From Bradymonadales bacterium (lineage in GTDB: Bacteria > Myxococcota_A > UBA9042 > PWKZ01), in assembly GCA_003559575.1 (NCBI GenBank), contig PWKZ01000080.1, positions 1 through 52,652 of the forward strand: a stretch of DNA of 52,652 nt. Direction: 5' to 3'. A program made the translations under genes and the position numbers. The notes under the pieces are model-generated. The model was not told the origin of the DNA. It ran no database searches and saw only the letters and a program-made list of their open reading frames with translations. Shown here piece by piece: positions 7,385 through 52,652 of this stretch (the stretch's first letter is position 1; every line of letters starts with the position of its first letter).

Positions 7385-7386
7385 CA

Positions 7387-7398
7387 CCATAATCGTCG
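7387..7398 (+). repeat. Solo 12-nt copy of the subfamily-1 repeat terminus (CCATAATCGTCG)
   Basis: Exact 12-mer match to the termini at 26851, 52532 and (reverse complement) 124-135, starting 3 nt after the tRNA-Ala 3' end. The rest of the element is absent. Confidence 0.5.
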
Positions 7399-30497: not shown

Positions 30498-30719
30498 GGT
30501 TTCACCCAATTCCAATGAGATGGTTAGCAGACTTTTTTACGGTTCGCGTCTCTAATCCGCCATTGCGCCGGCGGACTGCCCCGAGCATGCACCCGTGTAC
30601 GCCCCAAAACAAAGACCTCCAAACTCTAACAATCCCATCCGTGAGCCGCAACGGGTTGCGACGCGACTCTGAGGATCATAGCATCTGGAGGGGTGCGCAA
30701 ACGGGCCAGGAGGATCTTC

Positions 30720-33962: not shown

Positions 33963-33979
33963 GGTTCGAGGAGACGACC

Positions 33980-36115
33980 ATGCGACGCGCCCAATGCGGC
34001 CATCCTCAAAAAGTTTTGTTTCGGTGGATCCCCGTGGTGCTGTTGGTAACGGCCTGCGCGACGGGTGTCGACGACCAGGCGCTCGAGGGCGACGCGGTGG
34101 GCCGCGACGTTACCGTGGGGCTGCCCGATACCGTCGACGAACCGGGAAGCGACATCTCCAAGCCGGACGTGGACTTTCGCGAGGAAGTGGTCGACCGGCC
34201 GGACGTGGATGAGGGTGAGGTGAAGCCTCCCTCGCTCGCTTGCGACGACGGCGATCCTTGTACCTATGGCGATCGGATGGTGGACGGTGTCTGCGTGGGG
34301 ACGCCGTACACATGCGATGACGGCAAGGATTGCACCGCGAATGTTTGCGACGGGCTCGGCGGCTGCAAGTATAATCTCAAGGACGGCTACTGTCTCGTGC
34401 GGGGCGTGTGCGCCGAGGACGGCGAGTCGCCCGCCTGGGCGCCGTGCCTCGTTTGCGACGTCTCAGCGGCCACCGACGAGTGGACCGAGCGCGACGGCGA
34501 GTGCGACGACGGCGATCCGTGCACCGCCAACAATCTCTGCGAGGCGGGGGTCTGCGTCGGCGAGCCCGTGGTCTGCGACGACGGCAACCCTTGCACCACC
34601 GGCTGGTGCGATCCCGCTGAGGGCTGCGTCTTCACCCCCAACGCGCTCTCGTGCGACGATGGCGACGCCTGCACCGTCGGCGACTACTGCCACGACGGGG
34701 AGTGCCGGTCGGGGGCCGCGCGCCTCGACTGCGACGACGGCAACCCCTGCACCTCGAACGACTGCGATCCCGCAATGGGCTGTCTTGCAACCGACCTGCC
34801 CGACGGCGACGAGTGTGACGACGGCGACGCCTGCACGGTCGGCGCGTTTTGTCTGGACGGTATCTGCCAGGGGGCGCTCACCAAAAATTGCGACGACGGC
34901 AACTCGTGCACCTTCAACTGGTGCGATCCGATAAGCGGCTGCCAGGCGGAGTTGGATGTGGACAACCCTTGCTGTACTTCCGGCACCAACCCCTGCGACG
35001 ACGGCAACCCCTGCACCTTGAACGAGTGCAACCTGGAGGATGGTTCCTGCGAGGACATCCCGCTCGACGGCGAGCCGTGCGACGACGGCAACATTTGCAC
35101 CGCCACCGGGATCTGCGACGACGACGTCTGCGTTCCCGGGCCGGAGGTCGATTGCGACGACGGCAACCCCTGCACCTTCAACTGGTGCGATCCCGACCGC
35201 GGCTGCCGCAGTGAGCCGCTCGACCCCGGCAGTCCCTGCGAGCACCCCGACGAGTGTGTCGTGGACGCCGCCTGCGTGGACGGCGCCTGTGTCGGGGAGC
35301 GGCTCTCGTGCGTCGAGTGCCCGCCGCCGTTCTACAACCCGCTCAACATCGCGACCTCACTGGCGATAGGGACCGACGGGCACCCGGGCAGCGGACTTGA
35401 TGTGGACGGTGATCCCGACACCTGTGCCCCGGCGGCCAATTGCAGCGCCGGCGTCGACAACCAGTTCGCCCAGTCTCTAGGGATCCTCAACTCATTCATC
35501 GATGTGAACCAGACCCTGAGTGAGGCGGTCGCCGACGGGGACGTCAACATCTTGTTCGAGCACCGCGCGCCGGTGTTCGACGGCGGCGCCTACGAGCTGG
35601 CGGTGGTCATCGGTGAGCGGGCGCAGCCCGCCTGTGACCCTCTGGTCGAGCTGTGCCCCTACCTGGTGCTCGACGGGAGCTTTGTGGACGATCCTCCCTG
35701 CGAGGCGCTCATCAGGTTCGGCGACACCCGAATCGAGGACGGGGTGTTGACGGCGGGGGGGCCCGGATCGCGGTTTGGCATCTCGTTGCCGTTCATGGAG
35801 GGGGTCATGCTCGAGTTGACTCTCTACAACGCGCGCCTCGAGGCTCAGGTGACTGAGGAGGACGGCGCCGTGGTCGCCATGGCGCAAGGGCTAATCGGGG
35901 GCGCCATCCGCCGGCAGGACGTCGTCGATCTGGTCAACGCCCTACCGGACGAGGTGTTTGAAGACCTGCCGGTCACCCGCGAGTTGATAGTCGGGCTGCT
36001 GCCCTCGGTCTTCGTGACCGACATCGACACCACCGGCGACGGTGACCCCGACGCCACCTCGATCGGCCTCGAGTTCGAGGCGCGCGCCGCCCAAGTCACC
36101 GGCGTGGCGCCGTAG
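33980..36115 (+). CDS. Second cysteine-rich-repeat lipoprotein (paralogous N-terminal architecture, different C-terminal domain)
   Basis: ATG is preceded by GAGGAG, 17 nt after the upstream stop. Signal and lipobox IPVVLLVTAC. About 11 CDDG(D/N)xCT modules. Shares with the upstream protein the segment G.C...GE....PC..C.....DEWT. The C-terminal domain of about 265 aa is distinct. Confidence 0.8.
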   Translation: MRRAQCGHPQKVLFRWIPVVLLVTACATGVDDQALEGDAVGRDVTVGLPDTVDEPGSDISKPDVDFREEVVDRPDVDEGEVKPPSLACDDGDPCTYGDRMVDGVCVGTPYTCDDGKDCTANVCDGLGGCKYNLKDGYCLVRGVCAEDGESPAWAPCLVCDVSAATDEWTERDGECDDGDPCTANNLCEAGVCVGEPVVCDDGNPCTTGWCDPAEGCVFTPNALSCDDGDACTVGDYCHDGECRSGAARLDCDDGNPCTSNDCDPAMGCLATDLPDGDECDDGDACTVGAFCLDGICQGALTKNCDDGNSCTFNWCDPISGCQAELDVDNPCCTSGTNPCDDGNPCTLNECNLEDGSCEDIPLDGEPCDDGNICTATGICDDDVCVPGPEVDCDDGNPCTFNWCDPDRGCRSEPLDPGSPCEHPDECVVDAACVDGACVGERLSCVECPPPFYNPLNIATSLAIGTDGHPGSGLDVDGDPDTCAPAANCSAGVDNQFAQSLGILNSFIDVNQTLSEAVADGDVNILFEHRAPVFDGGAYELAVVIGERAQPACDPLVELCPYLVLDGSFVDDPPCEALIRFGDTRIEDGVLTAGGPGSRFGISLPFMEGVMLELTLYNARLEAQVTEEDGAVVAMAQGLIGGAIRRQDVVDLVNALPDEVFEDLPVTRELIVGLLPSVFVTDIDTTGDGDPDATSIGLEFEARAAQVTGVAP
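34241..35317 (+). repeat. Intragenic array of Cys-rich modules in the second lipoprotein gene
   Basis: Same tgcgacgacggcaacccctgcac-type motif recurring about 11 times. Coordinates derived from residues 88-446. Confidence 0.8.
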
Positions 36116-38916: not shown

Positions 38917-40038
38917 ATGTGGAAGCCTTCACCGGCTCTTGAAATGATCCTAATCATCTCGACCGTTGCTCTCTTCGGTTGCATTGAGGGCAAGCCGACA
39001 CCGCGAGAGACTACGATGGTCGAGGTGACCGATGACCTCGTGTTCCTTTTCGGCGACGAAAAGATCTGCCACAACGAGAGTGTTGCGCCCCAGAACCGCT
39101 TTGACTGCGACAACTTGCAAGACGGAGTGATCATCAGCAAGGTCTACCCGGCCATCATGGTCAGTCTGGAGCCGTTTGCCATCGACGCCCATGAGGTCAC
39201 CAACCTGCAGTATCGCTATTGCGTCGCCATGGGCGGCTGCCGGCCGCCCGAGTTCTCCAACACTCAACAGATAACCGACTACTACAACAACAGCCGCTAC
39301 GATGACTTCCCTGTGGTCAACGTGACCTTCGAGGCCGCCCGGGAGTACTGCGAGTTCGTGGGTAAACGTCTGCCCACCGAGTACGAATGGGAGCGAGTGG
39401 CGGCCGGCGGCGCGAGAGCGCCGGGCGCCAAACGCATCTATCCGTTCGAGGCCGATCCCTATTCCGTCAGCGCTTGTGTCGGCGAGGACGCGGCGATCTT
39501 CTACTGCAACCAGGATCGCAACCCCCGCCCGGTGGCAAGCTCCGACTACGACCGGGTCGCGGTGGGCGACGGCTATGTCTTCGATCTCGGTGGTAACGTG
39601 CGCGAGTGGGTGCTCGATCGTTGGCAGGAGGGGGTCACCTGCGAGCACGATTTGGCCGATTGTCGGGATTGTTTCGCGTGCGACCTCAATCTCGACTCGC
39701 GCTGCCTCATCGAGTGCAGGCTCTGCCCCGAGTGCGACGCCAACCCGGAGATCTGCTTCAGGCAGTGCGCCGGCCGCTCCACCGAAAAGCCGGAGGTGGT
39801 CTCGGGTTTCCCCATTTGTTTGAAATATGACGGTCACCGCTCCTGCGGCGTTTCAGACGACGGCGAGAGCACCTGCGCGCCGTCCACTTCGCCCCACCGC
39901 GCCGTGCGTGGCGGTAGCTACTTGACCGGTGAAACCCAGACTTGCCTGCTGCGGGCCACCGATCGCTCTCAGCGCCGGGTGGCCGATGAGATCAACAACG
40001 ACCTGGGCTTCCGCTGTGCCAGGTCATTAGAGCTCTGA
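38917..40038 (+). CDS. FGE-sulfatase (SUMF1/formylglycine-generating-enzyme family) domain lipoprotein with a Cys-rich insert
   Basis: ATG at 38917 (the track start is TTG at 38911) gives MWKPSPALEMILIISTVALFGC (lipobox). FAIDAHEVTNLQY, FPVVNVTFEAAREYCEFVGKRLPTEYEWE, GNVREWVLD, RAVRGGSY and FRCARS are typical FGE-domain blocks. Confidence 0.75.
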   Translation: MWKPSPALEMILIISTVALFGCIEGKPTPRETTMVEVTDDLVFLFGDEKICHNESVAPQNRFDCDNLQDGVIISKVYPAIMVSLEPFAIDAHEVTNLQYRYCVAMGGCRPPEFSNTQQITDYYNNSRYDDFPVVNVTFEAAREYCEFVGKRLPTEYEWERVAAGGARAPGAKRIYPFEADPYSVSACVGEDAAIFYCNQDRNPRPVASSDYDRVAVGDGYVFDLGGNVREWVLDRWQEGVTCEHDLADCRDCFACDLNLDSRCLIECRLCPECDANPEICFRQCAGRSTEKPEVVSGFPICLKYDGHRSCGVSDDGESTCAPSTSPHRAVRGGSYLTGETQTCLLRATDRSQRRVADEINNDLGFRCARSLEL

Positions 40039-40112
40039 GTCGGAAGTCGGCGGCAGGTTCGCTCCGACCCGCCTCGCCGGGCGCTCTCGACCTTGATGTC
40101 GCCGCAGCGTGC

Positions 40113-41219
40113 CTACACGATGGGGCTTGGGCGCGCCAAATAGGCTTCGAGATCCTCATCGGTCGCGTTCAGCGCGAGCCCGAAGCGAGGATCGGCCATG
40201 TTCCGCTGGAGGGCTTCTAGAAGATTGCGGGTGATGGGCCCCACCAGCCCATCTCCCACCGGCACCCCCTTGACCCCGATGACAGGCATCAAGCCGGCGC
40301 CGGTGCCGGTCAAAAACACTTCACGCTCCGCGCCCACCATGTCGATCGGCAGCATGTCGGGCACTTCTTCCACGCGGTAGCCCGCCCGGCGGGCCTCCAT
40401 CATTACTATATTGCGCGTAATTCCCACGAGACAGTACTCGGGGCTAGGGGTCTTGAGCGTCACCTGTGACGGGTCCTCGAGCCAGCCGGGCAGCCGCTCG
40501 ATGACGAAGATATTGTCGGCCGATGCCTCGGCCACCGCGCCGCCGGGAGTCAACATCAACGTCTCGAGCCTCTCCTGATCCTTGGTCTCGATGAGCGCGA
40601 AAATATTGTTGAGGTAGTTGTTGCTCTTGATGTTGGGGTCCACGAACTGCCGAGTGGCTCGCCGCGCGTTGCGCGCGATGCTGATTTCAATCCCGACCTC
40701 GTACTTCTCCGGGGGGTAGAGGCGGATGGTCGAGGCGATGCAGTAGAATGTCGGCGCGACGCACTTGCTCGGATGAATCCCGAGGTTGCCGAACCCGCGG
40801 GTCAGCACGGGGCGCAGATACCCCTTCTCCTCCTGCGAGAAGCCGACCGCCTGAACGGTGCGCAGAATGAACCGCGCGAGAGTCGCCATGTCGTAGGGGA
40901 TCCGGATCATCATCCGCTCGGCCGAGACGTACAGCCGCTCCAGGTGCTCCTTGAGTGTGAAGATCCGGCCGTTTATCACCAATATGCCCTCGAACACGGC
41001 GTCGCCATACAGGCCGCCGTGGTCGAGGGGCGAGAGCGGCGCTTCGTCCATTCTGAAAATGCCGTGTCGCCGCGGCACGCACTCGCCGCAATCAACGGCC
41101 TCGACCCGCTCTAGGTCGCCAAAAATGCGAGGTGTCAGGCCTTCGATATAGGGCATGCTGACAAAGACTCGGGCTTTCTCACTGATCTGTCGAAGCTCGG
41201 TTACGACGGGGTGCAACAT
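40113..41219 (-). CDS. Class IV (branched-chain/D-amino-acid) aminotransferase family protein
   Basis: ATG at 41219 is preceded by AAGGAG at ideal spacing (the track start at 41225 is GTG). GLYGDAVFEGILVINGRIFTLKEHLERLYVSA, YLRPVLTRG, ADNIFVIE, GITRN and EVFLTGTGAGLMPV match fold-type IV PLP enzymes. Confidence 0.82.
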   Translation of the reverse strand: MLHPVVTELRQISEKARVFVSMPYIEGLTPRIFGDLERVEAVDCGECVPRRHGIFRMDEAPLSPLDHGGLYGDAVFEGILVINGRIFTLKEHLERLYVSAERMMIRIPYDMATLARFILRTVQAVGFSQEEKGYLRPVLTRGFGNLGIHPSKCVAPTFYCIASTIRLYPPEKYEVGIEISIARNARRATRQFVDPNIKSNNYLNNIFALIETKDQERLETLMLTPGGAVAEASADNIFVIERLPGWLEDPSQVTLKTPSPEYCLVGITRNIVMMEARRAGYRVEEVPDMLPIDMVGAEREVFLTGTGAGLMPVIGVKGVPVGDGLVGPITRNLLEALQRNMADPRFGLALNATDEDLEAYLARPSPIV

Positions 41220-41344
41220 ATTCACTCTCCTTCGTCACTCGGCGCGGTTCGGCAAAGGCCGGGTAGCGAAACTTACTAACGGTCGCCCCACGGGTCAAGG
41301 CAGAGCGGCGAGACCTGCGATTGCTTCGATTTTTGGCTCTCGAT

Positions 41345-41522
41345 CCTCAATCCTCCACTCTGTCCGAGGACCGAGGGGAGTGAGGCGGGTGCAAGTGCAA
41401 GGAAACAAGCCAAATCGAGCGGAGGCGTAGCGGCGCTACGTCGAGCATCGATTTGGTGAAGGTGACGCAGCAGATGTGCCCGGATCGCTTCCCGAATCCC
41501 GGAAAAGGGTGGAGGATTGAGG
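41345..41522 (+). repeat. Palindromic intergenic repeat, subfamily 2, copy E (full length, 178 bp)
   Basis: Termini are CCTCAATCCTCCAC (41345-41358) and GTGGAGGATTGAGG (41509-41522). Core is TGCAAGGAAACAAGCC, inner stem CCAAATCGA/TCGATTTGG, apex GTAGC-GGC-GCTAC. Confidence 0.9.
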
Positions 41523-41627
41523 TGATGCCGGCGGTTGACGCGACTGCGCGGAGCGGGGATCATGCGGCTTGCGAATTGGCGCCTACCCGGCGCGGCGCAT
41601 TCATTCCACCCTCGAGGAGATGTCCCC

Positions 41628-43733
41628 ATGATCCGAAAGATATGGTTGCCCCAGCTCTCGGCGCTTGCTTTGCTGCTCGTCGCCGGCGCCTTCTCCCCGG
41701 TTGCCGCCGGCGATGGACATCCGTTCTCAGTCCACGACATGCTCGCCATGGAGCGCATCTCGGATCCGCGGGTTTCGCCCGACGGGAGCCTGGTGGCGTT
41801 CACGGTTCGCGCGACCGATCTCGAGGCCAACGCGGGGCGCTTCAATATCTATGTTGCGGGCCTCGACGGCCGGGAGGCCAGGCAGCTGACCTCCAACCCG
41901 GCCGCCGACCACAGCGCACGCTTCGCCCCGGACGGGCGCTCGCTGTACTTCTTGTCCGACCGCGGCGGATCCACTCAGGTCTGGCGAATCTCCCTCGAAG
42001 CAGCGGGTGGCGAAGCGACGCAGGTGACCGACCTGCCGCTTGATTTGGAGCATATGATGGTCAGCCCCGATGGCTCCAAGTTGGTGGTCTCCGCGCGAGT
42101 GTTTGCCGACTGCGATTCGCTCGCTTGCACGGCCGCGCGCCTCGCCGAACGCGCGGCGCAGAGCGCCAGCGGGCGCATCTATGAGCGTCTCTTCATCCGT
42201 CACTGGGATGAGTGGAAAGATGGTCGCCGCCGCCAACTCCTGGCGCTGTCGCTGGCGGAGGACGTGCTGGCGGGGGAACGCGCCGTGACGGCCTCGGAGG
42301 CGGTGTTGTTGATGAGCGGGATGGACGCCGACAGCCCCTATATTCCCTGGGGTAGCACGAGTGATCTGGCCTTCACCCCGGATGGCGCGGGGCTCGTGTT
42401 CGCGGCGCGTGACGTGGGCCGCGAAGAGGCCTGGTCGACCAACTTCGACCTGTTTCTGGTGCCGCTCGACGCGAGCAGTCCGCCGCGCAACTTGACCGCC
42501 GATAACCCGGCTTGGGATAAGGCGCCGGTGTTTTCGCCGGACGGCACTCGCCTGGCCTATCTGGCGATGGCGCGCCCCGGCTACGAATCCGACCGCTTGC
42601 GGGTGGTGGTCATGGACTGGCCGTCGGGTGAGCGAAGAACGCTCACCGAGGATTGGGAGCTGAGCCCCGGCAGCATCGCCTGGGCGCCCGACGGCCGGCG
42701 TCTCTACGCCACTGCGTTCAACCGCGGCCAGGTGAGCATTTTTTCGGTTGACGCGCGTCCCGGCCGGACTGCCGGTGAGGTCAAGTTGCTGATCGATCAG
42801 GGAACCAACAGGTCAGTGCGGCCGCATAAGGGGGGGATCCTGTTTACCCGCGACACCCTGGCCGGTCCGGTGGAGCTGTGGACCGCCGACGCCGAGGGGC
42901 GCCGCGAGCGCCGGGTGACCAATTTGAACACCGCCCGGATGGACGCTGTGCGCACCGGGGAGTTCGAGCAGTTCACCTTCGAGGGCGCCGGCGGAAACGA
43001 GGTCTGGGGCTACCTGGTCAAGCCGGTGGATTTCGATCCCGCGCGGCGCTACCCGGTGGCGTTTCTGATCCACGGCGGGCCCCAGGGCTCCTTCGGCAAC
43101 CACTTTCACTATCGCTGGAATCCGCAGGCCTACGCCGGGGCCGGTTACGCGGCGGTGATGATCGACTTTCACGGCTCGGTGGGCTACGGGCAAGAGTTCG
43201 TCGATGCGATTCGTGGGGACTGGGGAGGGGCGCCCTACCGCGATCTGAAGAAGGGGCTCGACGCCGCGCTCGAACGCTACCCGTTCCTGGATGGTGACCG
43301 GGTGGCGGCGCTCGGCGCTTCCTACGGTGGATACATGATCTTCTGGATCGCGGGACAGACCGACCGCTTCCGCTGCTTGGTCGCCCACAACGGCATCATC
43401 GACACTCGGATGGCCTACTTCGACACCGAAGAGCTGTGGTTCCCCGAGTGGGAGCACGAAGGGACCCCGTGGGAAAACCCCGAGGGCTACAGCCGCCACA
43501 ACCCCGTGCTGCACGTGCAGAACTGGACGACTCCGACTCTCGTGGTGCATAGCGCGCACGACTACCGAGTGGCCTTGACCCAGGGGATTGGAGCTTTCAA
43601 TGCGCTCCAACGGCTCGGCGTACCCTCCAGGTTTCTCTACTTCCCCGATGAGAATCATTGGGTGCTGAAACCCGCCAACAGCATCCTCTGGCATGAGACG
43701 GTGCTCGATTGGCTGGATCGCTTTACCGACTGA
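41628..43733 (+). CDS. Secreted S9-family serine peptidase (acylaminoacyl-/dipeptidyl-peptidase type: beta-propeller plus alpha/beta-hydrolase)
   Basis: ATG at 41628 is preceded by GAGGAG. Signal MIRKIWLPQLSALALLLVAGAFSPVAAG. PD40-like FAPDGRSLYFLSDRGGSTQVW. Catalytic blocks HGGPQG, GASYGGYM (GxSxGG), HSAHDYRV and DENHWV. Confidence 0.85.
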   Translation: MIRKIWLPQLSALALLLVAGAFSPVAAGDGHPFSVHDMLAMERISDPRVSPDGSLVAFTVRATDLEANAGRFNIYVAGLDGREARQLTSNPAADHSARFAPDGRSLYFLSDRGGSTQVWRISLEAAGGEATQVTDLPLDLEHMMVSPDGSKLVVSARVFADCDSLACTAARLAERAAQSASGRIYERLFIRHWDEWKDGRRRQLLALSLAEDVLAGERAVTASEAVLLMSGMDADSPYIPWGSTSDLAFTPDGAGLVFAARDVGREEAWSTNFDLFLVPLDASSPPRNLTADNPAWDKAPVFSPDGTRLAYLAMARPGYESDRLRVVVMDWPSGERRTLTEDWELSPGSIAWAPDGRRLYATAFNRGQVSIFSVDARPGRTAGEVKLLIDQGTNRSVRPHKGGILFTRDTLAGPVELWTADAEGRRERRVTNLNTARMDAVRTGEFEQFTFEGAGGNEVWGYLVKPVDFDPARRYPVAFLIHGGPQGSFGNHFHYRWNPQAYAGAGYAAVMIDFHGSVGYGQEFVDAIRGDWGGAPYRDLKKGLDAALERYPFLDGDRVAALGASYGGYMIFWIAGQTDRFRCLVAHNGIIDTRMAYFDTEELWFPEWEHEGTPWENPEGYSRHNPVLHVQNWTTPTLVVHSAHDYRVALTQGIGAFNALQRLGVPSRFLYFPDENHWVLKPANSILWHETVLDWLDRFTD

Positions 43734-43744
43734 TTTTCGGAGAT

Positions 43745-45223
43745 CTAATCACCGACCACTCCGATTTGCGCCGCGGTCTGGCTCGTGTCGCCCCGCGCCG
43801 CCGGCCAGCCGCCCGCGGCGAGCGCACCTACGTCGATCTCAAAGGCCGCCACCGCGCCGTCCCTGAATCCCACCGTCAAACCGCCGCCCGGCAGCGGCAG
43901 AATGTCGCCGCCGAAGCTCTCGGTGGGGGTCAGTTGCCAGAGGGGCTCAAGTGGTTCCGGGGCGGTGGAGTCCAGGCGATAGGCCGCCATCTCACCGTCG
44001 TTGGCGGCCAGCAAGATTTGGTCGCCGAGCCAGACGGGAGAAAGCGCGCTCCCCGCGGCGAAGATCTCGCGCGACCACTGCCGCTCATAGTGGCCGGGCC
44101 GAACGGAGAGCGCCACCAACGCGCCGGCGTTCGTCAGCGCAAAGACCGTCCCTTTGGAGGTCGCCACCAAACCGGCCACCGGACCTCCGAGAGGGAAACT
44201 CGCCGTCAGTACACCGGCTACCTCTTCATCGCGCACGATCATCAGGTCGTGATTCGCGGTGACGAGGAAGAGGTAGTCATCGAACAGCGCCGGTGCGATA
44301 CCCGCCAGTGGAGCAGCGTCGCTCTCCAGCGACCATTCGGTCAGGCCTGGGCGCGGCGATTCGCGCGCGATGGACACGGCGTGGATCCCTCCGGCGTCGT
44401 CGACCACATATAACCTCTCTCCGTACGTCTCTCCCGCAACCGGCGCCGTGAGGCTCACCCCGGCCGCGAACGACGGCCCGAGCGCGCTCGGCGCGAGGTC
44501 CTCGTCGAGCAAATGGACCGCCCCGTCGCGCTCAACCGCCACAAGGCGCAGGTCTCCCAAAAGCACCGGCGGAACGGCGACGGCCAATTCCACCTCGTGG
44601 CGACTCCGCCCGTCGTTGACGTCGATCAGCACCAGGTGTGTCTTGGTGGCGACGACGGCGCCTCCGTCCGGGCGCAGCACGGGGGCGAGTGGGGTTTCGC
44701 CGGGGCCCACCTCCTTCTCCCAGCGCAGCTCGCCGGAGGACTCGAGGCCGGCTGTATAAATCACCCGCACGCGCTCGGTGCCCGCCGGACGCGAGGTGTT
44801 GACTACGACGGCCGGTGCGTCGGCCCGTGGTTCGGCAAAGGTCGCCAGCCGGGGCGGTGTCAGGCTCTCGAGCGCAAAGCGCCACCGCAGGCAGTCTGGC
44901 TCTTGTGACAGGTCGCGCCCCCCCCAGGCGGGGCAACAGCCGTCGCCTTTGGAGGTGGGGTTGTCGGGGGAGCAGGTGGTGGGCGAGGACTCTCCACCGG
45001 AGGTCTCCGTCGAACCATACGGCGCCTTGGCGTCTTCGAGGTCGCCTGGGAGGGGGTGTTTGAAACAGTAGCCGTGATGACAAAAGCGATAGCCGGCGCT
45101 CAAATCGCAGTCGGCCGCCACCCGGCAGCGTGGTGCCGTCACTTCACCGATACAGCCGCTCAAGAACAGGATGACCGCCGGCCACATGACCGCTCGCGAA
45201 AGCCACGGTGTGCGGCGATTCAT
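43745..45223 (-). CDS. Lipoprotein with a PQQ/BamB-like beta-propeller repeat region
   Basis: ATG at 45223 overlaps the upstream stop as ATGA. N-terminus MNRRTPWLSRAVMWPAVILFLSGC (lipobox). Short Cys-rich segment CRVAADCDLSAGYRFCHHGYC. The remainder shows repeated G..hh.hD..G pattern blocks. Propeller assignment is tentative. Confidence 0.5.
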   Translation of the reverse strand: MNRRTPWLSRAVMWPAVILFLSGCIGEVTAPRCRVAADCDLSAGYRFCHHGYCFKHPLPGDLEDAKAPYGSTETSGGESSPTTCSPDNPTSKGDGCCPAWGGRDLSQEPDCLRWRFALESLTPPRLATFAEPRADAPAVVVNTSRPAGTERVRVIYTAGLESSGELRWEKEVGPGETPLAPVLRPDGGAVVATKTHLVLIDVNDGRSRHEVELAVAVPPVLLGDLRLVAVERDGAVHLLDEDLAPSALGPSFAAGVSLTAPVAGETYGERLYVVDDAGGIHAVSIARESPRPGLTEWSLESDAAPLAGIAPALFDDYLFLVTANHDLMIVRDEEVAGVLTASFPLGGPVAGLVATSKGTVFALTNAGALVALSVRPGHYERQWSREIFAAGSALSPVWLGDQILLAANDGEMAAYRLDSTAPEPLEPLWQLTPTESFGGDILPLPGGGLTVGFRDGAVAAFEIDVGALAAGGWPAARGDTSQTAAQIGVVGD

Positions 45224-47034
45224 TGGCGGCAGAGTTTTTCTCCGTAGTGGCGTGAACACCAGCGGCTCCAGTAGAAGAACGCGTCAGCGCGGCTCCACCC
45301 CTCGCTGCCCGGATCCCGGCCGGACAGCCGACTGAGGTCGCGACGGGCATTGTAGCTCACAAACGGCTGCTCGTCGCGCACGGCGGCCAACAACCGTCGG
45401 ATCTCGGCGGTTCGCCCTCGCCCCCGGAAGTGGCCGGCGGCCTCGAAGCCGGCTTCGATCCACCGGCGGCGAGGCGCGCGGCCGTTTGTGCGCCACCACT
45501 CGCGCCAGCTCTCCGCGGCGAACTCATCATCCTGCTCGAAGGCGTGATTGGTGAGATTTCGCAGCGCCCGGCGCAGCTCGGCCGGCGAGGCCGACGGGCT
45601 GGCGCCGGCGCCCTTCGTCGCGCGGGTCAACGCCGTGATGAGTGGCCGCACCACACCCCCGCGCTCACTGCGCCCCAGCAGATAGGCGGCTCGCATGCCC
45701 ACTGTGCTCTCGGGCAAATTCACCGGGGCCGGTCGCTGGGTCGGACGATCGTCATAGAGCTCCTGGATCAGCGCGCGCGCCGCCGCCGCGCCGCCGATTC
45801 GAGACAGGGCCTCGAGTAGCTCGTGGCGCTGCTGAGCGCTCCTCTCTCGCTGAAGGGCCGCGGCAATGGCCGGGACCGCGGTGCGGGTTCGTAACCGGCC
45901 GAGCGCCTCGGCGCTCGCGCGGCGCACCCCCTCGGCGGGGTCTCCAAGAAGGCGGATGAGCGCGCGGTCGCGTTCGGTGCTCTGCCCCAACCCAGCGACT
46001 CGATCAGGGTCGAGTAACGCGAGGATCTGGGCCGCTCCGGCGCGGTGGCCGGGATCTTCGGACCGGAGGAGCCGCGCGAGTTGCGCGACCCGTTTGGCAA
46101 AGTCGGCGCCCGGATCCGGGGCGCCGGAGCGCGGGATCCCGATGTTGCGGCAGCCCTCGAGAAGATCCTCGGTGGGGCAGTGGATGCGGATATGAAGGTG
46201 GTTGTCGTGGGGGGACGAGCCACGCGGCTGGTGCATCAGCAGTGCTGCCCGCATGAGGTCGCCCGGCGAAGCCCCGTGCTCTCTGCCATGATCCAACAGT
46301 GCGTCGCTGATGTGGCGTGCGACGAACAGCCATTGCACCGTCGCGCGCGGGTGTGCCACGAGCGCCTGGACAGCGCTCCAGGTGCGCGGGACGTCCAGGT
46401 GGCAGTCGGCCAGCTCGACACACCGCAGCTCGGAGTCGATTTGCACGAAATGCTCCGGTGTGATCTGGCGTCCTTGGCTGTCGCTGAGATAGAAGCCGAT
46501 GTCCGCATCGAGCCCGTTGCGGTGCGAGACGCTCCAGGGGAGTCGGCCGCCCCCCGGTCGCGCGAGGTTGCCCACGTGCAGCACGGCCCCCGGATGTTGC
46601 CTCGCGACGAAAGCGGCCGAGTCGGTGAGGAGCTGCACCAGCTCGTCGGTTCCAAAATTGGTTCGTCGCGGTAGGACGGCGGCCAGAATCTCGTGATGGG
46701 GGCCCAGCGGAGGCAGCTCGACGCCGTCGATCAGCACCCCGTCGACGGCGGATCCGACCGCGATGGTGCCGTGATCCGGGAAGTTGAGCCGGGGGTGAGC
46801 GCGCCGGACGAGAGGCATGGGTGGCTGGAGAACGCGAGGTTCAATGGTCAGCCGGTCGCGCCGTGTCGGGATCTCGCTCGGCGCGCGGGGTCGTTCAGCA
46901 CAGCAGTGGGGCGCCTCGGGGGCCGGGGCGTCGGGCCGACACGCGATCGTCGCGCAGGCGGCGGTGGCCACGGCCGGCAGCAGGGCTGCGAGGAAGCGCA
47001 GCGGCCCAAGCTTGAATGCGTTTCTACCGTGCAC
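45220..47034 (-). CDS. Penicillin-insensitive murein endopeptidase (MepA/M74-like) domain fused to C-terminal HEAT repeats
   Basis: WSVSHRNGLDADIGFYL and SSPHDNHLHIRIHCP match the M74 zinc-ligand blocks (H.SH..GLD.D and H..H.H.R). The C-terminal half has HEAT repeats (HRAGAAQILALLDPDR, GVRRASAEALGRLRTRTAVPAIAAAL). The start is uncertain. GTG at 47034 gives VHGRNAFKLGPLRFLAALLPAVATAAC, a signal-like N-terminus. The track ORF extends to 47373. Confidence 0.65.
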   Translation of the reverse strand: MHGRNAFKLGPLRFLAALLPAVATAACATIACRPDAPAPEAPHCCAERPRAPSEIPTRRDRLTIEPRVLQPPMPLVRRAHPRLNFPDHGTIAVGSAVDGVLIDGVELPPLGPHHEILAAVLPRRTNFGTDELVQLLTDSAAFVARQHPGAVLHVGNLARPGGGRLPWSVSHRNGLDADIGFYLSDSQGRQITPEHFVQIDSELRCVELADCHLDVPRTWSAVQALVAHPRATVQWLFVARHISDALLDHGREHGASPGDLMRAALLMHQPRGSSPHDNHLHIRIHCPTEDLLEGCRNIGIPRSGAPDPGADFAKRVAQLARLLRSEDPGHRAGAAQILALLDPDRVAGLGQSTERDRALIRLLGDPAEGVRRASAEALGRLRTRTAVPAIAAALQRERSAQQRHELLEALSRIGGAAAARALIQELYDDRPTQRPAPVNLPESTVGMRAAYLLGRSERGGVVRPLITALTRATKGAGASPSASPAELRRALRNLTNHAFEQDDEFAAESWREWWRTNGRAPRRRWIEAGFEAAGHFRGRGRTAEIRRLLAAVRDEQPFVSYNARRDLSRLSGRDPGSEGWSRADAFFYWSRWCSRHYGEKLCRQ

Positions 47035-47359
47035 GACGATCAGGCTTCCTCGGTTGACTGCGGTCTTAACGAACTCGAACAAATTTCGACGTCGCGACGC
47101 CGCGCTCGCTCTCGCGATCAAAATAAGCGAAACGCGCCCCCGAGGTCCAACTGTTGTGCGTGGTGCTTTGTGCGCGGTACTCTCTCTATCTCCGGGGGGT
47201 TTCATTCGGTGTGGCCGCCTTGTTTTGGAGGAACCGATGGACCACGAGATCGTGACTTGTACCTTGGCGGCGTTTTTTGCGTGCGAAGCGGTCCCGCGTG
47301 GGACGAGGCCGGTCTGCACCACCATTCCCTGATCTCCGTGCTTTTGGGAGGCCTTTCTC

Positions 47360-47902
47360 GTGACTGCCCGCAAGACTTATTATGGAGTGCGCGTCTCCAA
47401 AGAGTATTTGAACTTCGGCGCGGCTCACTTCCTGCTATTCGCCGACGGCAGCCGCGAGGCGTTGCACGGCCACAACTACCGGGTCGCGGTGACCCTTCAA
47501 GGGGCGCTCGACCAGGGCGGTGTGGTGGTGGATTTCCTGGTGCTCAAGCCGCTCGTCAAGGCGATCTGTGAGCGGCTCGATCACCGCACGTTGCTGCCCG
47601 GGGCGAGCTCCGCGGTCCAGATAGTGGAACGAGACGGTGAAGTCGAGGTCCGCCATCGCCGGCAACGTTTCGTCTTCCCCAGCAGCGACGCGCTAGTGCT
47701 GCCGCTCGAGAACATCTCGGCCGAACACCTCGCCCGATACATCGCCGATCATCTGCTTCGGGCGCTCAGCGAACATTGCTCGGGCGCGCGGCTGGAGATG
47801 ATTGAGGTCGAAGTGGAGGAGACCCCGGGTCAGGTGGCGTTCGTGCGGCGCCACGATTTTGATCCGGCGCCATGTCCGCGCAAAGGGGGAGGGGCACAGT
47901 GA
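47360..47902 (+). CDS. queD: 6-carboxytetrahydropterin / 6-pyruvoyl-tetrahydropterin synthase family protein (QueD-like)
   Basis: GTG start preceded by GGGAGG. AAHFLLF....EALHGHNYRVAVTLQG.....GVVVDFLVLKPLVKAICERLDHRTLLP is the PTPS/QueD signature. No other queuosine genes are in the window, so the symbol is tentative. Confidence 0.75.
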   Translation: MTARKTYYGVRVSKEYLNFGAAHFLLFADGSREALHGHNYRVAVTLQGALDQGGVVVDFLVLKPLVKAICERLDHRTLLPGASSAVQIVERDGEVEVRHRRQRFVFPSSDALVLPLENISAEHLARYIADHLLRALSEHCSGARLEMIEVEVEETPGQVAFVRRHDFDPAPCPRKGGGAQ

Positions 47903-47904
47903 TG

Positions 47905-48082
47905 CCGGTAATCGCCGGTTCGTTCTGAGGAGCGAGCGAGTGGAGGCGCGTTCATGTGCAAGGAAACAAGCCGAATTAGGCGCAGTCGTAGCAGCGCTAC
48001 GGCGAGCGCTAATTCGGTGCAGGTGACGCCGCAGATGTGCGTGAATCCGTCCGCGAATCCCTGGATGGGCCGGCGATTATGG
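47905..48082 (+). repeat. Palindromic intergenic repeat, subfamily 1, copy B (full length, 178 bp)
   Basis: Left terminus CCGGTAATCGCCGG (47905-47918) and right terminus CCGGCGATTATGG (48070-48082). The interior is nearly identical to copies A and C. Confidence 0.9.
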
Positions 48083-50089
48083 ACGACGGCACGCGCCTGG
48101 GGGCTCGTGGTTCTCCTGGCCTCTTGGGGGCTGTATCTCGTGACGTTGGCCCCGGGGGTGTTTTGGCTCGACAGCGGCGAGCTGGTGGCGTCCGCCCACA
48201 CCCTCGGGATCCCGCATCCGCCGGGCCATCCGGTTTATCTCATTCTGGCCAAGTTGGCCTCGCTGGTGCCCATCGCGAGCGTGCCCGTTCGGGTGGGGCT
48301 GCTATCGGCAGTGTTCGGCAGCGCAGTCGCGCTCTTGCTCTACGCGCTCGTGTTGTGGGTTTGGCGCGGGCGCGATGACTCTTGCGATCTCCTGCTGGCG
48401 CCGTCGGCAGCGTTGGGGGCGCTGGTGTTCACCGCCAGCCCGGCGCTGTGGTTCCAATCCATTCGGAGCGAGGTCTATACCCTCAACCTGGCGCTGATTT
48501 TGATTCCAACGCTCCTCTTGGTGCGGCTCCACGGCGCGACACCGGCGCCCGCGGCCTGCAAAAAACGCAATGGACAAGCTCTTGGTGCCGGAAATGTGGC
48601 CGTTGCCGTGTTTCTGGTGGGCCTTGGGCTCGGCAATCATCATTTGTTGGTCCTGCTGAGTCTCCCGGCGCTGGCGTGGCTGGCGCTCTCGCTCCCCTCC
48701 TTCAGGGCACGCCTGACCCTCGGGAGGTTCGCGCTGCTGTTCATGGTAGGGGTCGTGGCGCTCGCGCCTTATGCCGTCCTGCCTTTGCGCGCGCGCCTCC
48801 TGCCGGCGATGCACTGGGGTGACGCGAGTACTTTGGCAGGGTTCTTCGATCTGGTCAGCGCGCGGGTCTTCCACGGCGCCGTCGACCCGGCCACGCGCGC
48901 CTCGCTGGGGGCCAATCTGCTGGTGGCGCTGGAATTGTTCATGCGGCAGTTGACGGCCCCGGTTGTTCTGGCGGGGGTGGTGGGGTTGGTGTTGCTGGCG
49001 CGCCGCCGGCCTCTGCCGGCTGTGGGGTTGTTGCTGCTCCTGTTCGGCAGCTTGCTCTCCAAAGTGATGATGTTTTTGGATCCCGACAATCCAGACGATC
49101 ACGGCTATTTCTCGGCGGCGCTGGGGATGTTGGCGCTCGCCGCCGCCGTCGCCGTCGGCGCGGCGGCCGCTGCGCTGGCCCGGCGGTGGCCGGCGGCGAA
49201 GGGCGCCTTGGCGTTGGGCTGCGGCGCTTTGGCCCTCGGAGCGATGACAGTTCAGGTGACGAGAAATGTCGAGTCAAGCTCGTTGATGCGGTTTCGATCT
49301 CCCGACGTGGTGCTCGACGCGACGCTCGAGGGTGTCCCGCCGCGGACCGTGCTGATGCCCTATTATTACGCGCTGCATTTCACTTTGCAGTACGCTCAAC
49401 TGGTCGAAGAGCGGCGCCCCGACGTGGCGCTCGTCCACCAGACATTCATGGCCCATATCGACGGGGGGGAACCCTACCTGCGCCGGCTCGAGACGGCCCA
49501 TCCACGCCTAGGTAATCTGGCCGAGGCGTTTCGCCGCGAAGCCGCTGTGCCCACGAAGGCGGTGTTGGCGCAATCCAAGGAGCGGCCCGTCTACCTGGAG
49601 CCGTTTCGCGAGCGGGTCGTGCCGGCCGAAAACTTGGAGCCCCTCGGGATGCTGGCGCGCGTCCGGTTCGATCCGGCCGCGCTGCCCCAGGCCGGCAGCG
49701 AGGCCGAACGTGCCCAAAGCGCTTGGCGTGTGGCTTACTGGACCGAACTCGAGCGGCGCCTGGGGCACGAGCGGGTCCGTTACCCACACACCGGCGCGTT
49801 ACTGCTGTGGTACACCTATTTGGAGGCTCATCTGTTGTATGAGCGCGGCGAATATGAGGCCGCGCGGGAGGCGGTTCGGCGAGGGCTCTCGTGGCACCCC
49901 GACTCGCCGCGGCTCCGGCGACTGGAGACTCGACTCTTGACGACCGAGGGCCGCGCTTGTATCGAGGGGGGGGCGAGAGGTGAGCCTCTCGTCCGCTCCT
50001 TTGTCGATGCCGCAGCCGTTCATGGGAAAGCGAAGCTCGCATGGCCGATCCGACGACTGACAAGCAAACCGCCGAACCGCCCCTCGTGA
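48065..50089 (+). CDS. DUF2723 (TMEM260-type GT-C) polytopic membrane protein with a C-terminal TPR-like region
   Basis: LAPGVFWLDSGELVASAHTLGIPHPPGHPVYLIL is the hallmark DUF2723 N-terminal loop. At least 10 TM segments. C-terminal YERGEYEAAREAVRRGLSWHP is TPR-like. The track start at 47954 lies in the repeat, so I place the start at ATG 48065 (MGRRLWTTARAWGLVVLL), which is itself inside the repeat terminus. Confidence 0.75.
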   Translation: MGRRLWTTARAWGLVVLLASWGLYLVTLAPGVFWLDSGELVASAHTLGIPHPPGHPVYLILAKLASLVPIASVPVRVGLLSAVFGSAVALLLYALVLWVWRGRDDSCDLLLAPSAALGALVFTASPALWFQSIRSEVYTLNLALILIPTLLLVRLHGATPAPAACKKRNGQALGAGNVAVAVFLVGLGLGNHHLLVLLSLPALAWLALSLPSFRARLTLGRFALLFMVGVVALAPYAVLPLRARLLPAMHWGDASTLAGFFDLVSARVFHGAVDPATRASLGANLLVALELFMRQLTAPVVLAGVVGLVLLARRRPLPAVGLLLLLFGSLLSKVMMFLDPDNPDDHGYFSAALGMLALAAAVAVGAAAAALARRWPAAKGALALGCGALALGAMTVQVTRNVESSSLMRFRSPDVVLDATLEGVPPRTVLMPYYYALHFTLQYAQLVEERRPDVALVHQTFMAHIDGGEPYLRRLETAHPRLGNLAEAFRREAAVPTKAVLAQSKERPVYLEPFRERVVPAENLEPLGMLARVRFDPAALPQAGSEAERAQSAWRVAYWTELERRLGHERVRYPHTGALLLWYTYLEAHLLYERGEYEAAREAVRRGLSWHPDSPRLRRLETRLLTTEGRACIEGGARGEPLVRSFVDAAAVHGKAKLAWPIRRLTSKPPNRPS

Positions 50090-52512
50090 GCGCTCCCACC
50101 GTGGAACACGACGCGGCCCCCGCCGCGAAGCTCCCCGAGCTACCCTTGCTCGAAGAGGATATGACCCGAATCGACGTCCACCGCCCCGAGCCGCGCGAGT
50201 GGCTGGTGCGACTGCTCATATTGCTTCTCGGTGTCGTCCTGTATCTCCCGCACCTCGGCGGGTTCGGGCTCTGGGATCCGTGGGAGACCCACTACGGCGA
50301 GGTCACCCGCAACATGATCGAGACTTATGACTGGATCGCGCCGTGGTGGGGCTTCAAGGAGCAGATTGGCACCGAGCGGATCAACGGCGATTGGTTTTTC
50401 TCCAAACCAATCTACACCTTCTGGGCGGAGGCGGTCTCGGCCCGCATCTTCGGGCTGTCCGACTTTGCGATAAGATTGCCCATCGCGCTCCTCGCCATTG
50501 CAGCGGTGTTCGGGGTGTACTTCACCTTCTCGCGCATCGTCGGCCGCAAAATGGGTGTCTTGGCGGCCGTGGTGATGGCCACCTCACCGCAGTTTTTCTT
50601 CATCGCGCGCCAGGCCCAGACCGACATGCCGTTCGTGGCCACGATGGTGCTCGCGATGTGCGCCTTCATCCTGGGAGTCTTCGGCCCGCGCCGGGCCATC
50701 AGCGACGTCCAGTTCCGGTGGCGCGCCGTGGCCTTCCTCGCGTTCTTGCTGCTGTCAATCGTGCCTCAGCTCATGATGCTCGCCACCGACCTCTCGCGCG
50801 ACGTCTCGGCCAGCCTCCCTCCCATGCAGCGTCTCTGGATGACCATTCGTGGCAATGGGATCTATCACGCGCTGATTTATGGCGCGGTGCTGGTGCCGGT
50901 GCTGCTGGCCATCATTGTGCCGCTGGTGCGCGAGACGCGCGCCTCGCGCGGCGTGGGCCTGAGCGACGAGCTCAAAGACCGCGCGCTACGTCGTTTCTAC
51001 ATCCTGGCGTTCTACATCTTGTTGGCCCACTCGACCCTGGCCAAGGGGCTGCTCGGCTTCCTGCTGCCCGGGTTCATCATCGGCGTCTTTCTGCTCTTGA
51101 CGCGACCCGGGCTGGCGGGGCGTCTGCTGCTGTTCTTCTCATTCCCACCGGTGACCTGGCCCGTACTACGTTCCATGCCCAAGTATCGCCCCGCAATGCG
51201 TTTCGAGCCGATCCTGGGGTTCATGTTGTTCTTGCTCACGGCGCTGCCCTGGTATCTCGCAATGTTCGCGCGCTTCGGCCGTGCTTACTACAACCGCTTC
51301 TTCATCCACGATCACTTCAATCGCCTCGAGTCGGGCGTTCATCAGATCGACACCGGAACATTCGAGCACTTCATCAAGTGGCTCGGTTATGGTGTCTTCC
51401 CTTGGGTGGCGTTTGTGCCGTTCGTGCTGCTCGGGCTGGCGCGCCTCCGCCTCTCGGATTGGCGCCCCAAGAACCAGTTGCGTCTGTTGTTGGTGTTGTG
51501 GACGTTTCTGTCATACGCGCTCTTTACACTGTCCGCCACAAAGTTTCATCACTACATCTTCCCGGCTCTGCCGCCGCTCGCGGTTCTCACGGGCTGGTTT
51601 CTTTTTGAGGCGCTCGCGGACCGTTCGCGGCGTATGCGTGTCGCGGCGGTGGTGGGCGGTGTGTTGCTCCTGGCCATCGCTTGGGATATCCACGAGGAGC
51701 CGCAGCAACTTCGCAACCTCATGACGTACCAGTATGAGCGGCCGCTGCCCGCTCACTTGCCGATCGATCCCGATGCCCCGATCTCAGCCTCCAACCCCGA
51801 TCCTTGGCGCGAGTCCACCTTCTTCAAGCACACCAGCGCGTCATTGCACTGGATACTGGCGCAGCCGTGGTTGCGCTACGAGACCTTCATTCGGTTTGTT
51901 TCGGTGGTGGCGCTGTTGGGGTTTTTGCTCTTCTTTTTCGTGCGCACCCGCGGCCCGGGTGTGGTGGTGGTCTCGCTTGCCGGGGTGCTACTGTGCCTCT
52001 GGAGCCTCAACTATTATATGCCGACTCTGTCGCCGCACTGGTCCCAAAAATACCTCTTCGAGGCCTATTACGAGGACTGCGAGCTACTCGAGAACCCACG
52101 GGAGATCGATGAGGCCTACACCCCGCTGATCTCTCGGATCGGCCTCGAGGGTCTGTTCAAGAGGCTCGGCGGCAACCGTAAGAGGGTCTGCCGGGAAGAC
52201 GTGATCTCATGGTTGCTGACCTGGCGCGGTGAGACTTACTACTCCTACAACGAGATTCGCCCCATCAACCGCGAGGCGACGCAGTTCGAGGCCTATCTCC
52301 GTGAGCACAACCGGGGGCAGCCGTTCTATCTGTTCATCGAACGCGGGCGGGTCGGTGGCATGGAGGCGCGTCTCAACAACTACACCCGCACCCTCAAGGG
52401 CAAAGATGTGCCCGAGTTCATGGAGATCGACTCGTGGGTGGTCGAGACGGTGCATGATGAAAATCAGTACTTCGTTTTGGCCAAGGCGACCCCAAACCGG
52501 AGGTCGCTCTGA
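50041..52512 (+). CDS. GT39/ArnT-PMT-like phospholipid-carrier-dependent glycosyltransferase
   Basis: LPHLGGFGLWDPWETHYGEVTRNMIETYDWIAPWW resembles the first-loop signature of GT39/ArnT-type enzymes. More than 12 TM segments and a soluble C-terminal domain. ATG at 50041 overlaps the upstream gene by 49 nt. Alternative ATG at 50161 (MTRIDVHRPEPREW). Confidence 0.7.
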   Translation: MADPTTDKQTAEPPLVSAPTVEHDAAPAAKLPELPLLEEDMTRIDVHRPEPREWLVRLLILLLGVVLYLPHLGGFGLWDPWETHYGEVTRNMIETYDWIAPWWGFKEQIGTERINGDWFFSKPIYTFWAEAVSARIFGLSDFAIRLPIALLAIAAVFGVYFTFSRIVGRKMGVLAAVVMATSPQFFFIARQAQTDMPFVATMVLAMCAFILGVFGPRRAISDVQFRWRAVAFLAFLLLSIVPQLMMLATDLSRDVSASLPPMQRLWMTIRGNGIYHALIYGAVLVPVLLAIIVPLVRETRASRGVGLSDELKDRALRRFYILAFYILLAHSTLAKGLLGFLLPGFIIGVFLLLTRPGLAGRLLLFFSFPPVTWPVLRSMPKYRPAMRFEPILGFMLFLLTALPWYLAMFARFGRAYYNRFFIHDHFNRLESGVHQIDTGTFEHFIKWLGYGVFPWVAFVPFVLLGLARLRLSDWRPKNQLRLLLVLWTFLSYALFTLSATKFHHYIFPALPPLAVLTGWFLFEALADRSRRMRVAAVVGGVLLLAIAWDIHEEPQQLRNLMTYQYERPLPAHLPIDPDAPISASNPDPWRESTFFKHTSASLHWILAQPWLRYETFIRFVSVVALLGFLLFFFVRTRGPGVVVVSLAGVLLCLWSLNYYMPTLSPHWSQKYLFEAYYEDCELLENPREIDEAYTPLISRIGLEGLFKRLGGNRKRVCREDVISWLLTWRGETYYSYNEIRPINREATQFEAYLREHNRGQPFYLFIERGRVGGMEARLNNYTRTLKGKDVPEFMEIDSWVVETVHDENQYFVLAKATPNRRSL

Positions 52513-52531
52513 AGGGCCAAATTAGGCTTGA

Positions 52532-52652
52532 CCATAATCGTCGGTTCGTTCTGAGGAGCGAGCGTGTGGAGGCGCGTGCATGTGCAAGGAAGCAAGCCGA
52601 ATTAGGCGGAGGCGTAGCAGCGCTACGTCGAGCACTAATTCGGTGCAGGTGA
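52532..52652 (+). repeat. Palindromic intergenic repeat, subfamily 1, copy C (right part cut by window edge)
   Basis: Starts with CCATAATCGTCGG 19 nt after the GT39 stop and continues TTCGTTCTGAGGAGCGAGCG.GTGGAGGCGCGT.CATGTGCAAGGAA.CAAGCCGAATTAGG..., as in copy B. Confidence 0.88.

Follow-up and report, generated by a model that had tools for sequence, protein, structure and literature searches.

A probable family of MITEs, about 178 bp long, in an uncultured soda-lake lineage of Myxococcota

In an uncultured lineage of Myxococcota from soda lakes, we identified non-coding repeats of about 178 bp that are likely to be a previously undescribed family of MITEs. The copies form a single family with terminal inverted repeats; a subset of the complete copies is flanked by short direct duplications; there are deleted and chimeric derivatives; and for one copy, the orthologous site in related genera is empty. 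The element has no coding capacity: six-frame translation gives short open stretches only, and these match just spurious extensions of neighbouring genes. Mobilisation in trans, the family of the transposase, and any effect of the repeats on gene expression are what we infer from these sequences.

The window (the whole 52,652-nt stretch of DNA that was analysed) contains seven copies, or one per 7.5 kb. Six of these (copies A to F) were in the original prediction, and repeat detection, blastn, and an nhmmer profile agree on all six and on their coordinates. The similarities are well beyond chance: the E-values from nhmmer range from 1e-40 to 1e-57 for the six copies, and with blastn, copies of one subtype match each other at 1e-47 to 1e-69 and copies of different subtypes at about 1e-26. 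Copy G, a partial copy, was absent from the earlier list. Within the PMT_2 gene, nhmmer also gave a weak match at 51823-51902 (7.7 bits, E = 0.065), which we judged to be due to chance. From left to right, the copies and the tRNA gene that adjoins one of them are:

1-135/136, + strand: copy A, type 1; its left ~42 nt are lost at the window edge
7312-7385, + strand: tRNA-Ala(CGC); copy G begins 1-2 nt past the 3' end of the tRNA
7386-7446, - strand: copy G, a diverged, truncated right-arm fragment of 61 nt (model positions 123-182)
22459-22635, - strand: copy D, type 2, full-length (177 bp), with 90% identity to copy E
26851-26949, + strand: copy F, a composite mini element of 99 bp
41345-41522, + strand: copy E, type 2, full-length (178 bp), with ends CCTCAATCCTCCAC...GTGGAGGATTGAGG
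47905-48082, + strand: copy B, type 1, full-length (178 bp), without a flanking duplication
52532-52652, + strand: copy C, type 1; its right part is lost at the window edge

The distances to neighbouring genes had been given correctly in the original prediction. Copy A is downstream of a dihydroorotate-dehydrogenase-like gene (279-1265, - strand), and contigs break inside this copy in other assemblies as well. Copy B begins 2 nt past the stop codon of the PTPS (queD-like) gene. Copy C starts 19 nt past the stop codon of the PMT_2 glycosyltransferase (GT39) gene, and it gains 20 nt from the contig L007. Copy D is in reverse orientation between two co-directional genes on the + strand, and copy E lies in the divergent gap between a class IV aminotransferase gene and an S9 peptidase gene.

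Full copies are 177-178 bp in the window and 177-183 bp across the family, and conservation ends precisely at the CC...GG boundaries. The inverted-repeat ends are 13-15 bp long and begin CCATAATCG or CCTCAATC, i.e. with 5'-CC. There are two subfamilies. Type 1 (copies A, B, and C) has the ends CCATAATCGTCGG...CCGACGATTATGG, with a perfect terminal inverted repeat of 13 bp and pairwise identities of 92-94%. Type 2 (copies D and E) has the ends CCTCAATCCTCCAC...GTGGAGGATTGAGG, with a perfect terminal inverted repeat of 14 bp and pairwise identities of 90-96%. Between the two types, identity is about 78%. Copy B has CCGGTAATCGCCGG, a variant, as its left end and CCGGCGATTATGG as its right end. 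Inside the termini there is an inner stem of 9-10 bp (GCCGAATTAG/CTAATTCGGT), and an apical hairpin, CGTAGC-AGC-GCTACG, closes the structure. Symmetry is only partial in the mid-arm regions, and overall the two arms share about 66% identity. This anatomy, with its length of 177-178 bp, its terminal, inner, and apical stems, and its partly symmetric middle, is the one that had been described from the sequence of the window.

We found about 15 more copies on other contigs from the same soda-lake population of Myxococcota. This brings the total to about 22 copies in the ~99 kb that was sampled, or approximately one copy per 5-8 kb. Extrapolating from this density, we would expect hundreds of copies per genome. 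Some loci are especially rich in the repeat: there are three copies in the 16.9 kb of locus L054 and three in the 3.3 kb of locus L062. Several of these loci were found by using the translated repeat as a protein query, which exploits the tendency of gene callers to pick an ATG within the element as a gene start. This query found five proteins, one of which was the window's own, and led to loci L054-L058 and L062.

Exact protein matches place the window in a population that has been assembled repeatedly from hypersaline soda-lake sediments, including the metagenome-assembled genomes GCA_007134265.1, GCA_007127155.1, and GCA_003566035.1, the ENA assemblies ERZ27301261-63, and several Logan runs. 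Contigs L006-L012 are 99.7-100% identical to the window over the compared stretch. We saw no presence/absence polymorphism among strains: every assembly that spans a site either has the copy or breaks inside it. The window and over 12 other contigs (L001, L003, L004, L006, L007, L010, L012, L054, and L057-L062), from several independent assemblies, have an end that falls within a copy, a hallmark of high-copy repeats that fragment short-read assemblies. A search with a 21-nt core pattern gave at least four contigs, all from one soda-lake sediment metagenome sample, and, among species-representative genomes, at least one contig: the end of PWNY01000287, which is labelled as Bacteroidales. The repeat probably helped this contig to be binned there. 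In viral contigs, there were no matches to the core pattern; an end pattern had 39 matches, all by chance and with no extended similarity.

The family had been called unnamed, and our searches agree. At Rfam's gathering thresholds, the whole window matched tRNA only, and copy B had no match at E-values up to 10. Searches with blastn in its distant mode found no match in a plasmid collection (copies B and E) or in a phage collection (copy E), and neither the end sequences nor the core sequences had a match in the literature search. A search of the literature for MITEs in Myxococcota or MITEs derived from IS1380 returned nothing relevant.

The clearest single case of insertion is copy B. In the window, the gap between the PTPS gene and the downstream glycosyltransferase gene is filled exactly by this copy. 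In related genera (loci L013 and L014), the same glycosyltransferase comes next to PTPS, across a gap of only 13 or 54 nt that is free of the repeat. The nearest relatives of the glycosyltransferase are 50-54% identical at the protein level, and one of them is on a contig labelled Myxococcota PWKZ01. Reconstruction of the empty site of copy B gives ...CAGTGATG^ACGACGG..., and excising 47905-48082 in silico gives ...GGGGGAGGGGCACAGTGATG^ACGACGGC..., which regains the arrangement GGAGG-N9-ATG. The regained ATG is in the reading frame of the glycosyltransferase and overlaps the stop codon of PTPS (TGATG). Also, the regained N-terminus, MTTARAWGLVV..., aligns with MRRPSASASWG and MRWPAPARAWG in the homologues. 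It looks like copy B lies immediately behind the ATG at which the glycosyltransferase originally started and severs this ATG from its reading frame, so the glycosyltransferase would now have to start at the ATG at 48065 or at the GTG at 48107. The corresponding features are:

47887-47904, + strand: putative ancestral ribosome-binding site (GGAGG) with ATG (47902-47904), from the empty-site reconstruction and the N-terminal alignment with homologues
48065-48067, + strand: candidate present-day start codon, an in-frame ATG in the right end of copy B (MGRRLWTTARAWG...)
48107, + strand: alternative candidate start of the glycosyltransferase, a GTG

Every copy was originally described as intergenic. 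This should be qualified for copy B, which lies directly after the likely original start codon of the glycosyltransferase.

To score flanking duplications, we set the boundaries of the element at the points where conservation ceases (CC...GG), and we scored the 11 complete copies. Three of them have exact, in-register direct repeats of 5 bp: GGTTG at L002, AGAGT at L054b, and ATCCC at L054a. A fourth, at L056, has a 4-bp direct repeat (AAGA). In the controls, mismatched pairs of flanks gave no matches (0/110), and an offset right flank gave one (1/244), which is the TTAGA around the mini copy at L057, two nucleotides out of register. By a rough estimate, the probability of obtaining three or more exact 5-mers by chance is below 1e-6. 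The other seven complete copies have no flanking duplication, and these include all of the full copies in the window (B, D, and E). Copy F has none either. The original prediction saw no target-site duplication because the copies that it had to work with (B, D, E, and F) do not have any; this holds for those copies and fails for the family, given the duplications of 4-5 bp at 4 of 11 complete copies. At copy B, the missing duplication is not attributable to recombination between copies, since both flanks are syntenic with the relatives. We saw no conserved target tetranucleotide or pentanucleotide, and no other flanking motif, beside the ends.

The family also includes derivatives that have lost or exchanged parts, and the deletion derivatives span 57-99 bp. 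The mini copy at L057 is 57 bp long: it retains 48 nt at the left end and the final 9 nt, with the interior deleted. Copy F joins the reverse complement of the right-arm end of type 1 (~48 nt) to the right-arm end of type 2 (~52 nt); the central ~80 nt are absent, and it can still fold as a hairpin. L054a and L054c are chimeras with one arm from type 1 and one from type 2. L062 includes a rearranged copy of 240 nt with an internal partial duplication, and at L003 and L004, copies adjoin fragments of other copies. Deleted, chimeric, and rearranged forms are typical of MITE families.

The mobile-element option of the original prediction is thus the one that we favour, given the duplications in a subset of copies, the derivatives, the empty orthologous site, and the restored junction of stop and start codons. 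If this is correct, a transposase encoded elsewhere would have acted in trans and spread the elements through the genome of one lineage. It would bind both ends and either cut out or copy the element, and insertion at a staggered cut would leave a target duplication of 4-5 bp. Within each of the two subfamilies, both ends and the arms would have co-evolved. Copies would then have recombined to form chimeras, lost their interiors to become mini elements, and landed side by side. The palindromy and the compensatory changes, which extend across the whole element, are not obviously explained by the binding of a transposase.

The terminal inverted repeats, together with duplications of 4-5 bp, point to a DDE transposase, which probably moves the family in trans. 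The original prediction reported that the window lacks a transposase or integrase, and this holds for the main open reading frames that we scanned: 31 reading frames with Pfam and 8 with NCBIfam, with some in both sets. Across the ~99 kb of the window and the fetched loci, we found no autonomous element and no transposase with matching ends. As a lead, the IS1380 family is the best fit to the CC ends, the inverted repeats of 13-15 bp, and the duplications of 4-5 bp. Elements of the IS1380 family generally have ends that begin with CC. Members of this family produce duplications of similar size (4 bp for ISPa33 and 5 bp for ISPsp9; PMC4133298), and their ends are about 14-21 bp. ISEcp1 has a 14-bp left end, CCTAGATTCTACGT, that also begins with CC, and it makes 5-bp duplications (PMC6061673). 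Compared with the left end of ISEcp1, the type 2 end has 8 identical nucleotides out of 14 and the type 1 end has 7 out of 14, which is a short and statistically weak match, too short to be decisive. The resemblance to IS1380 elements is in the size of the duplication, the short inverted repeats, and the CC at the start of the ends; no IS1380-type transposase with such ends was found in the ~99 kb.

Duplications of 5 bp are also made by Tn3-family transposases, so we considered whether the repeats could be Tn3-derived miniature elements (TIMEs) that are moved by such an enzyme. TIMEs resemble our repeat in several ways. They are non-autonomous, they form mosaic derivatives and long RNA hairpins (-70 to -115 kcal/mol), and many copies have no duplication, as duplications are often lost by recombination (PMC4133298). 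However, TIMEs have Tn3-type inverted repeats of ~38 bp and are usually single-copy, possibly due to transposition immunity (PMC4133298). Our repeat has ends of just 13-15 bp that start with CC, and it is present at about one copy per 5 kb sampled. One of its copies also has a duplication of 4 bp instead of 5. We consider a Tn3 origin to be very improbable. Tn3-family inverted repeats start with GGGG.

Another potential source of palindromic repeats is a Y1 transposase that moves single-stranded DNA hairpins, as in REPIN-like elements with RAYT or in palindrome-associated elements of the IS200/IS605 type. REPINs are REP doublets that are mobilised by RAYT transposases; they have no target duplication and no inverted-repeat ends of the DDE type. 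Like REPINs, our repeats are numerous and intergenic, and as imperfect palindromes they can fold into long hairpins; the arm-arm composite F and the solo arm of copy G recall REP doublets and single REPs. The strand asymmetry of the fold (see below), the GTAG tetranucleotide in the apical hairpin (CGTAGC), and the lack of a flanking duplication at most copies would also fit a Y1 enzyme. But the duplications of 5 bp or 4 bp at 4 of 11 copies are not made by such families, the terminal inverted repeats (CC...GG) are clear, and there is no conserved tetranucleotide or pentanucleotide target beside the ends. The unit of 178 bp is far larger than a REP of 20-40 nt, and REPIN units are shorter as well. 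Finally, a RAYT gene flanked by REPs would be expected, and we found no Y1 transposase or RAYT gene in the window or the fetched loci (~99 kb). On the strength of the duplications, the 178-bp unit with DDE-style ends, and the absence of a Y1 transposase from the ~99 kb, we rejected membership in the REP or REPIN families, and a Y1 mechanism of any kind seems quite unlikely. The earlier suggestion of a PATE-like element (IS200/IS605 type) is not supported either: there are terminal inverted repeats and duplications, and there is no fixed flanking motif.

We also considered a role for the folded element in the host. Each full copy forms one long hairpin, with RNA folding energies of -97 to -109 kcal/mol. 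For example, copy B folds at -97.1 kcal/mol (z = -6.5 against dinucleotide shuffles) and copy E at -109.3 kcal/mol (z = -10.7). The consensus structure of nine full-length copies has 62 pairs, with 93% of the cells paired, and 17 of the consensus pairs are altered on both sides yet still paired. The covariation score is 0.264, as compared to 0.156 in shuffles (reached in 0 of 500) and 0.03-0.08 with slid partners. The canonical strand is more stable than its complement by 24-36 kcal/mol as RNA and by 9 kcal/mol with DNA parameters. Also, many copies are located 0-30 nt past stop codons. Together, these features could indicate a structured RNA or DNA hairpin that was selected by the host because it stabilises 3' ends, serves as a site of processing or insulation, or terminates transcription in an unconventional way. 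Its spread and conservation would then stem from this function instead of selfish transposition.

Several observations argue against host selection. Nearly all of the covariation is a single split between type 1 and type 2, which is one evolutionary event rather than many. The arms have G-T and A-C mismatches in ratios of 10:3, 6:5, and 7:4, which is a weak bias. Copies are found in both orientations relative to the neighbouring genes (D is antisense, while B and C are sense), and E and F are in divergent promoter gaps. We do not take the strand asymmetry as proof of a function in RNA because of these weak mismatch counts and mixed orientations, and we did not adopt selection at the RNA level as its explanation. 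The duplications, deletion derivatives, and chimeras indicate mobile DNA, and relatives have the same gene junction without the element. Copies are placed in gene gaps or at the extreme ends of genes: besides B and C, which closely follow stop codons, the mini copy at L057 lies directly past one, and another copy, at the end of L057, overlaps the predicted 3' end of rsmB. We take this placement to reflect purifying selection against insertion within genes, and not as evidence of function.

Termination was one of the roles that had been proposed, and it finds no support here. No copy is followed by a T-tract (the following sequences are ACGACG, GTGATG, and similar), and a scan of copies E, B, and C found no terminator-like or promoter-like site inside them. 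The host lineage seems to be poor in classical terminators. Because copies B and D both lie between co-directional genes, transcription probably has to read through them. A transcribed element would form a very stable hairpin and could possibly affect mRNA stability or translation. Such effects have been reported for ERIC and suggested for TIMEs (PMC4133298). Overall, we consider it unlikely that a host function explains the spread of the repeat.

A related idea, to which we give a small chance, is that the hairpin is not just a side effect of two matching transposon ends: transposition might proceed through, or require, a hairpin that one particular strand forms when single-stranded, or the copies might have been recruited as RNA-level punctuation of operons, such as stabiliser or processing hairpins and start codons. 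This idea derives from the 17 compensatory pairs along the 178 bp, the gap of 24-36 kcal/mol between the strands, and the lack of a duplication at most copies.

Returning to the interpretation of the repeats as MITEs, there are well-known bacterial counterparts. Correia elements in Neisseria, ERIC in enterobacteria, RUP in Streptococcus, and Nezha in cyanobacteria are MITEs of ~100-260 bp. Bacterial MITEs are high-copy and mostly intergenic, they form long hairpins and are co-transcribed with their neighbours, and they sometimes have deleted or chimeric forms. The soda-lake repeat is likewise small, non-coding, and high-copy, with terminal inverted repeats and a hairpin that spans the whole element. 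In contrast to these classical MITEs, it has no sequence similarity to a known family in our searches of Rfam, plasmids, phages, and the literature, and its duplication is 4-5 bp, while Correia-type elements duplicate TA. It also differs in its host, an uncultured lineage of Myxococcota, and in its very high density of about one copy per 5-8 kb.

As far as our searches show, then, the repeat appears to work like the classical bacterial MITEs: it would be an undescribed family of a kind that is already known, and it leaves the general understanding of transposons unchanged. Within the searches that we made, MITEs are hardly described in Myxococcota, and none are described in this uncultured soda-lake lineage. 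We know of no described MITE of the IS1380 family, so if the parent transposase is IS1380-like, the repeat would be a MITE from a family that is not known for yielding them. At about one copy per 5-8 kb, the repeat breaks up all short-read assemblies of the organism. Scaffolding and binning could be aided by a profile of the element, which could also flag spurious gene starts inside copies. For the host, copy B would be an example of an insertion that cut a gene off from both its start codon and its ribosome-binding site and supplied a replacement ATG.

Copy B of the element (47905-48082, + strand) interferes with the annotation of the gene that follows it. In the region 47887-48110 of the window, the TMEM260/GT117-like glycosyltransferase has what appear to be its original ATG and ribosome-binding site directly before copy B, and this ATG shares bases with the stop codon of the upstream PTPS gene (TGATG). 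Gene callers instead begin the glycosyltransferase at 47954, where an ATG lies mid-repeat. The called start adds about 37-42 residues to the protein, and these are spurious. The identical false start (MCKETSRIRR...) is found in an FHA-domain gene of another contig with element copies (L054).

Just upstream of copy B, the PTPS gene contains a hairpin that resembles a terminator and is trailed by a T-rich stretch (47834-47864; GTGGCGTTCGTGCGGCGCCAC GATTTTGATC); it falls within the final 70 nt of the coding region. A scan of window positions 40000-52652 gave 18 terminator-like sites, versus 8.4 expected, and the sites whose positions were compared with those of the genes are inside coding regions.

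The window also holds a fragment of the element and a stretch that faintly resembles it. The 3' end of the tRNA-Ala(CGC) gene is adjoined, 1-2 nt on, by a truncated and diverged element arm (window 7312-7446). This arm may be a remnant of an insertion beside the tRNA gene, or it may have some role at the tRNA's 3' end. Within the coding sequence of the PMT_2 gene, positions 51823-51902 weakly resemble the middle of the element, and the similarity is palindromic (7.7 bits, E = 0.065). This is probably a chance similarity; another reading is that it may be an old exapted fragment.

Two large neighbouring genes (30693-36115) encode many cysteine-rich repeats of the CDDGNPCT type, with a match to Dicty_CTDC in Pfam and DNA periods of about 150 nt; these genes are the source of most of the window's remaining families of direct repeats. 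A run of 6-, 12- and 18-nt repeats of GGGTTC/GGGCTC (4606-4767) lies within an 806-amino-acid open reading frame (3152-5572, - strand) and presumably encodes a low-complexity linker of the acidic/proline type. A similar array of 12- and 18-nt repeats is found at positions 5942-6211 of a locus from a related genus (L014).

Three element copies on L054 are interspersed with a series of genes (505-8824): phage-tail-like baseplate genes (GPW_gp25, Baseplate_J, and Tail_P2_I), followed by two FHA-domain genes. Together these genes may be a contractile injection system, or they may form a type VI-like locus, in the same organism. A 3.1-kb contig with 59% G+C (PWNY01000287.1), which ends in a type 2 copy, was deposited in a metagenome-assembled genome labelled Bacteroidales. 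It was probably mis-binned, and the element copy at its end possibly contributed to this. Another contig, the 3.3-kb L062, has both of its ends inside type 2 copies. It also carries a rearranged type 1 copy of 240 nt (1246-1484), which opens with the left 52 nt, continues with 43 nt taken from the right arm and then begins the element again from about position 32. This arrangement looks like a product of palindrome slippage or template switching.

The right arm of the element contains subterminal direct repeats of GAATC, about 12 nt apart (for instance, at window 41476-41500 and 48041-48062). These could be binding sites for a transposase or another protein.

Subterminal GAATC repeats of the right arm
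Type 2: CCCGAATCGCTTCCCGAATCC
Type 1: GTGAATCCGCGCGCGAATAC

Some copies have sequences resembling the element's ends just outside them.

End-like sequences beside element copies
Window 52515-52531, 5 nt before copy C: GGCCAAATTAGG, resembles an element end
L054 at about 9741-9760, directly before the type 1/type 2 chimera (L054c): GGCCGGAATTAGG, resembles an element end
L004 (another contig with element copies) 124-140, immediately after a type 2 end: ATTATGG, the final 7 nt of the type 1 end

These end-like sequences suggest nested or adjacent insertions, or else a preference for end-like targets.
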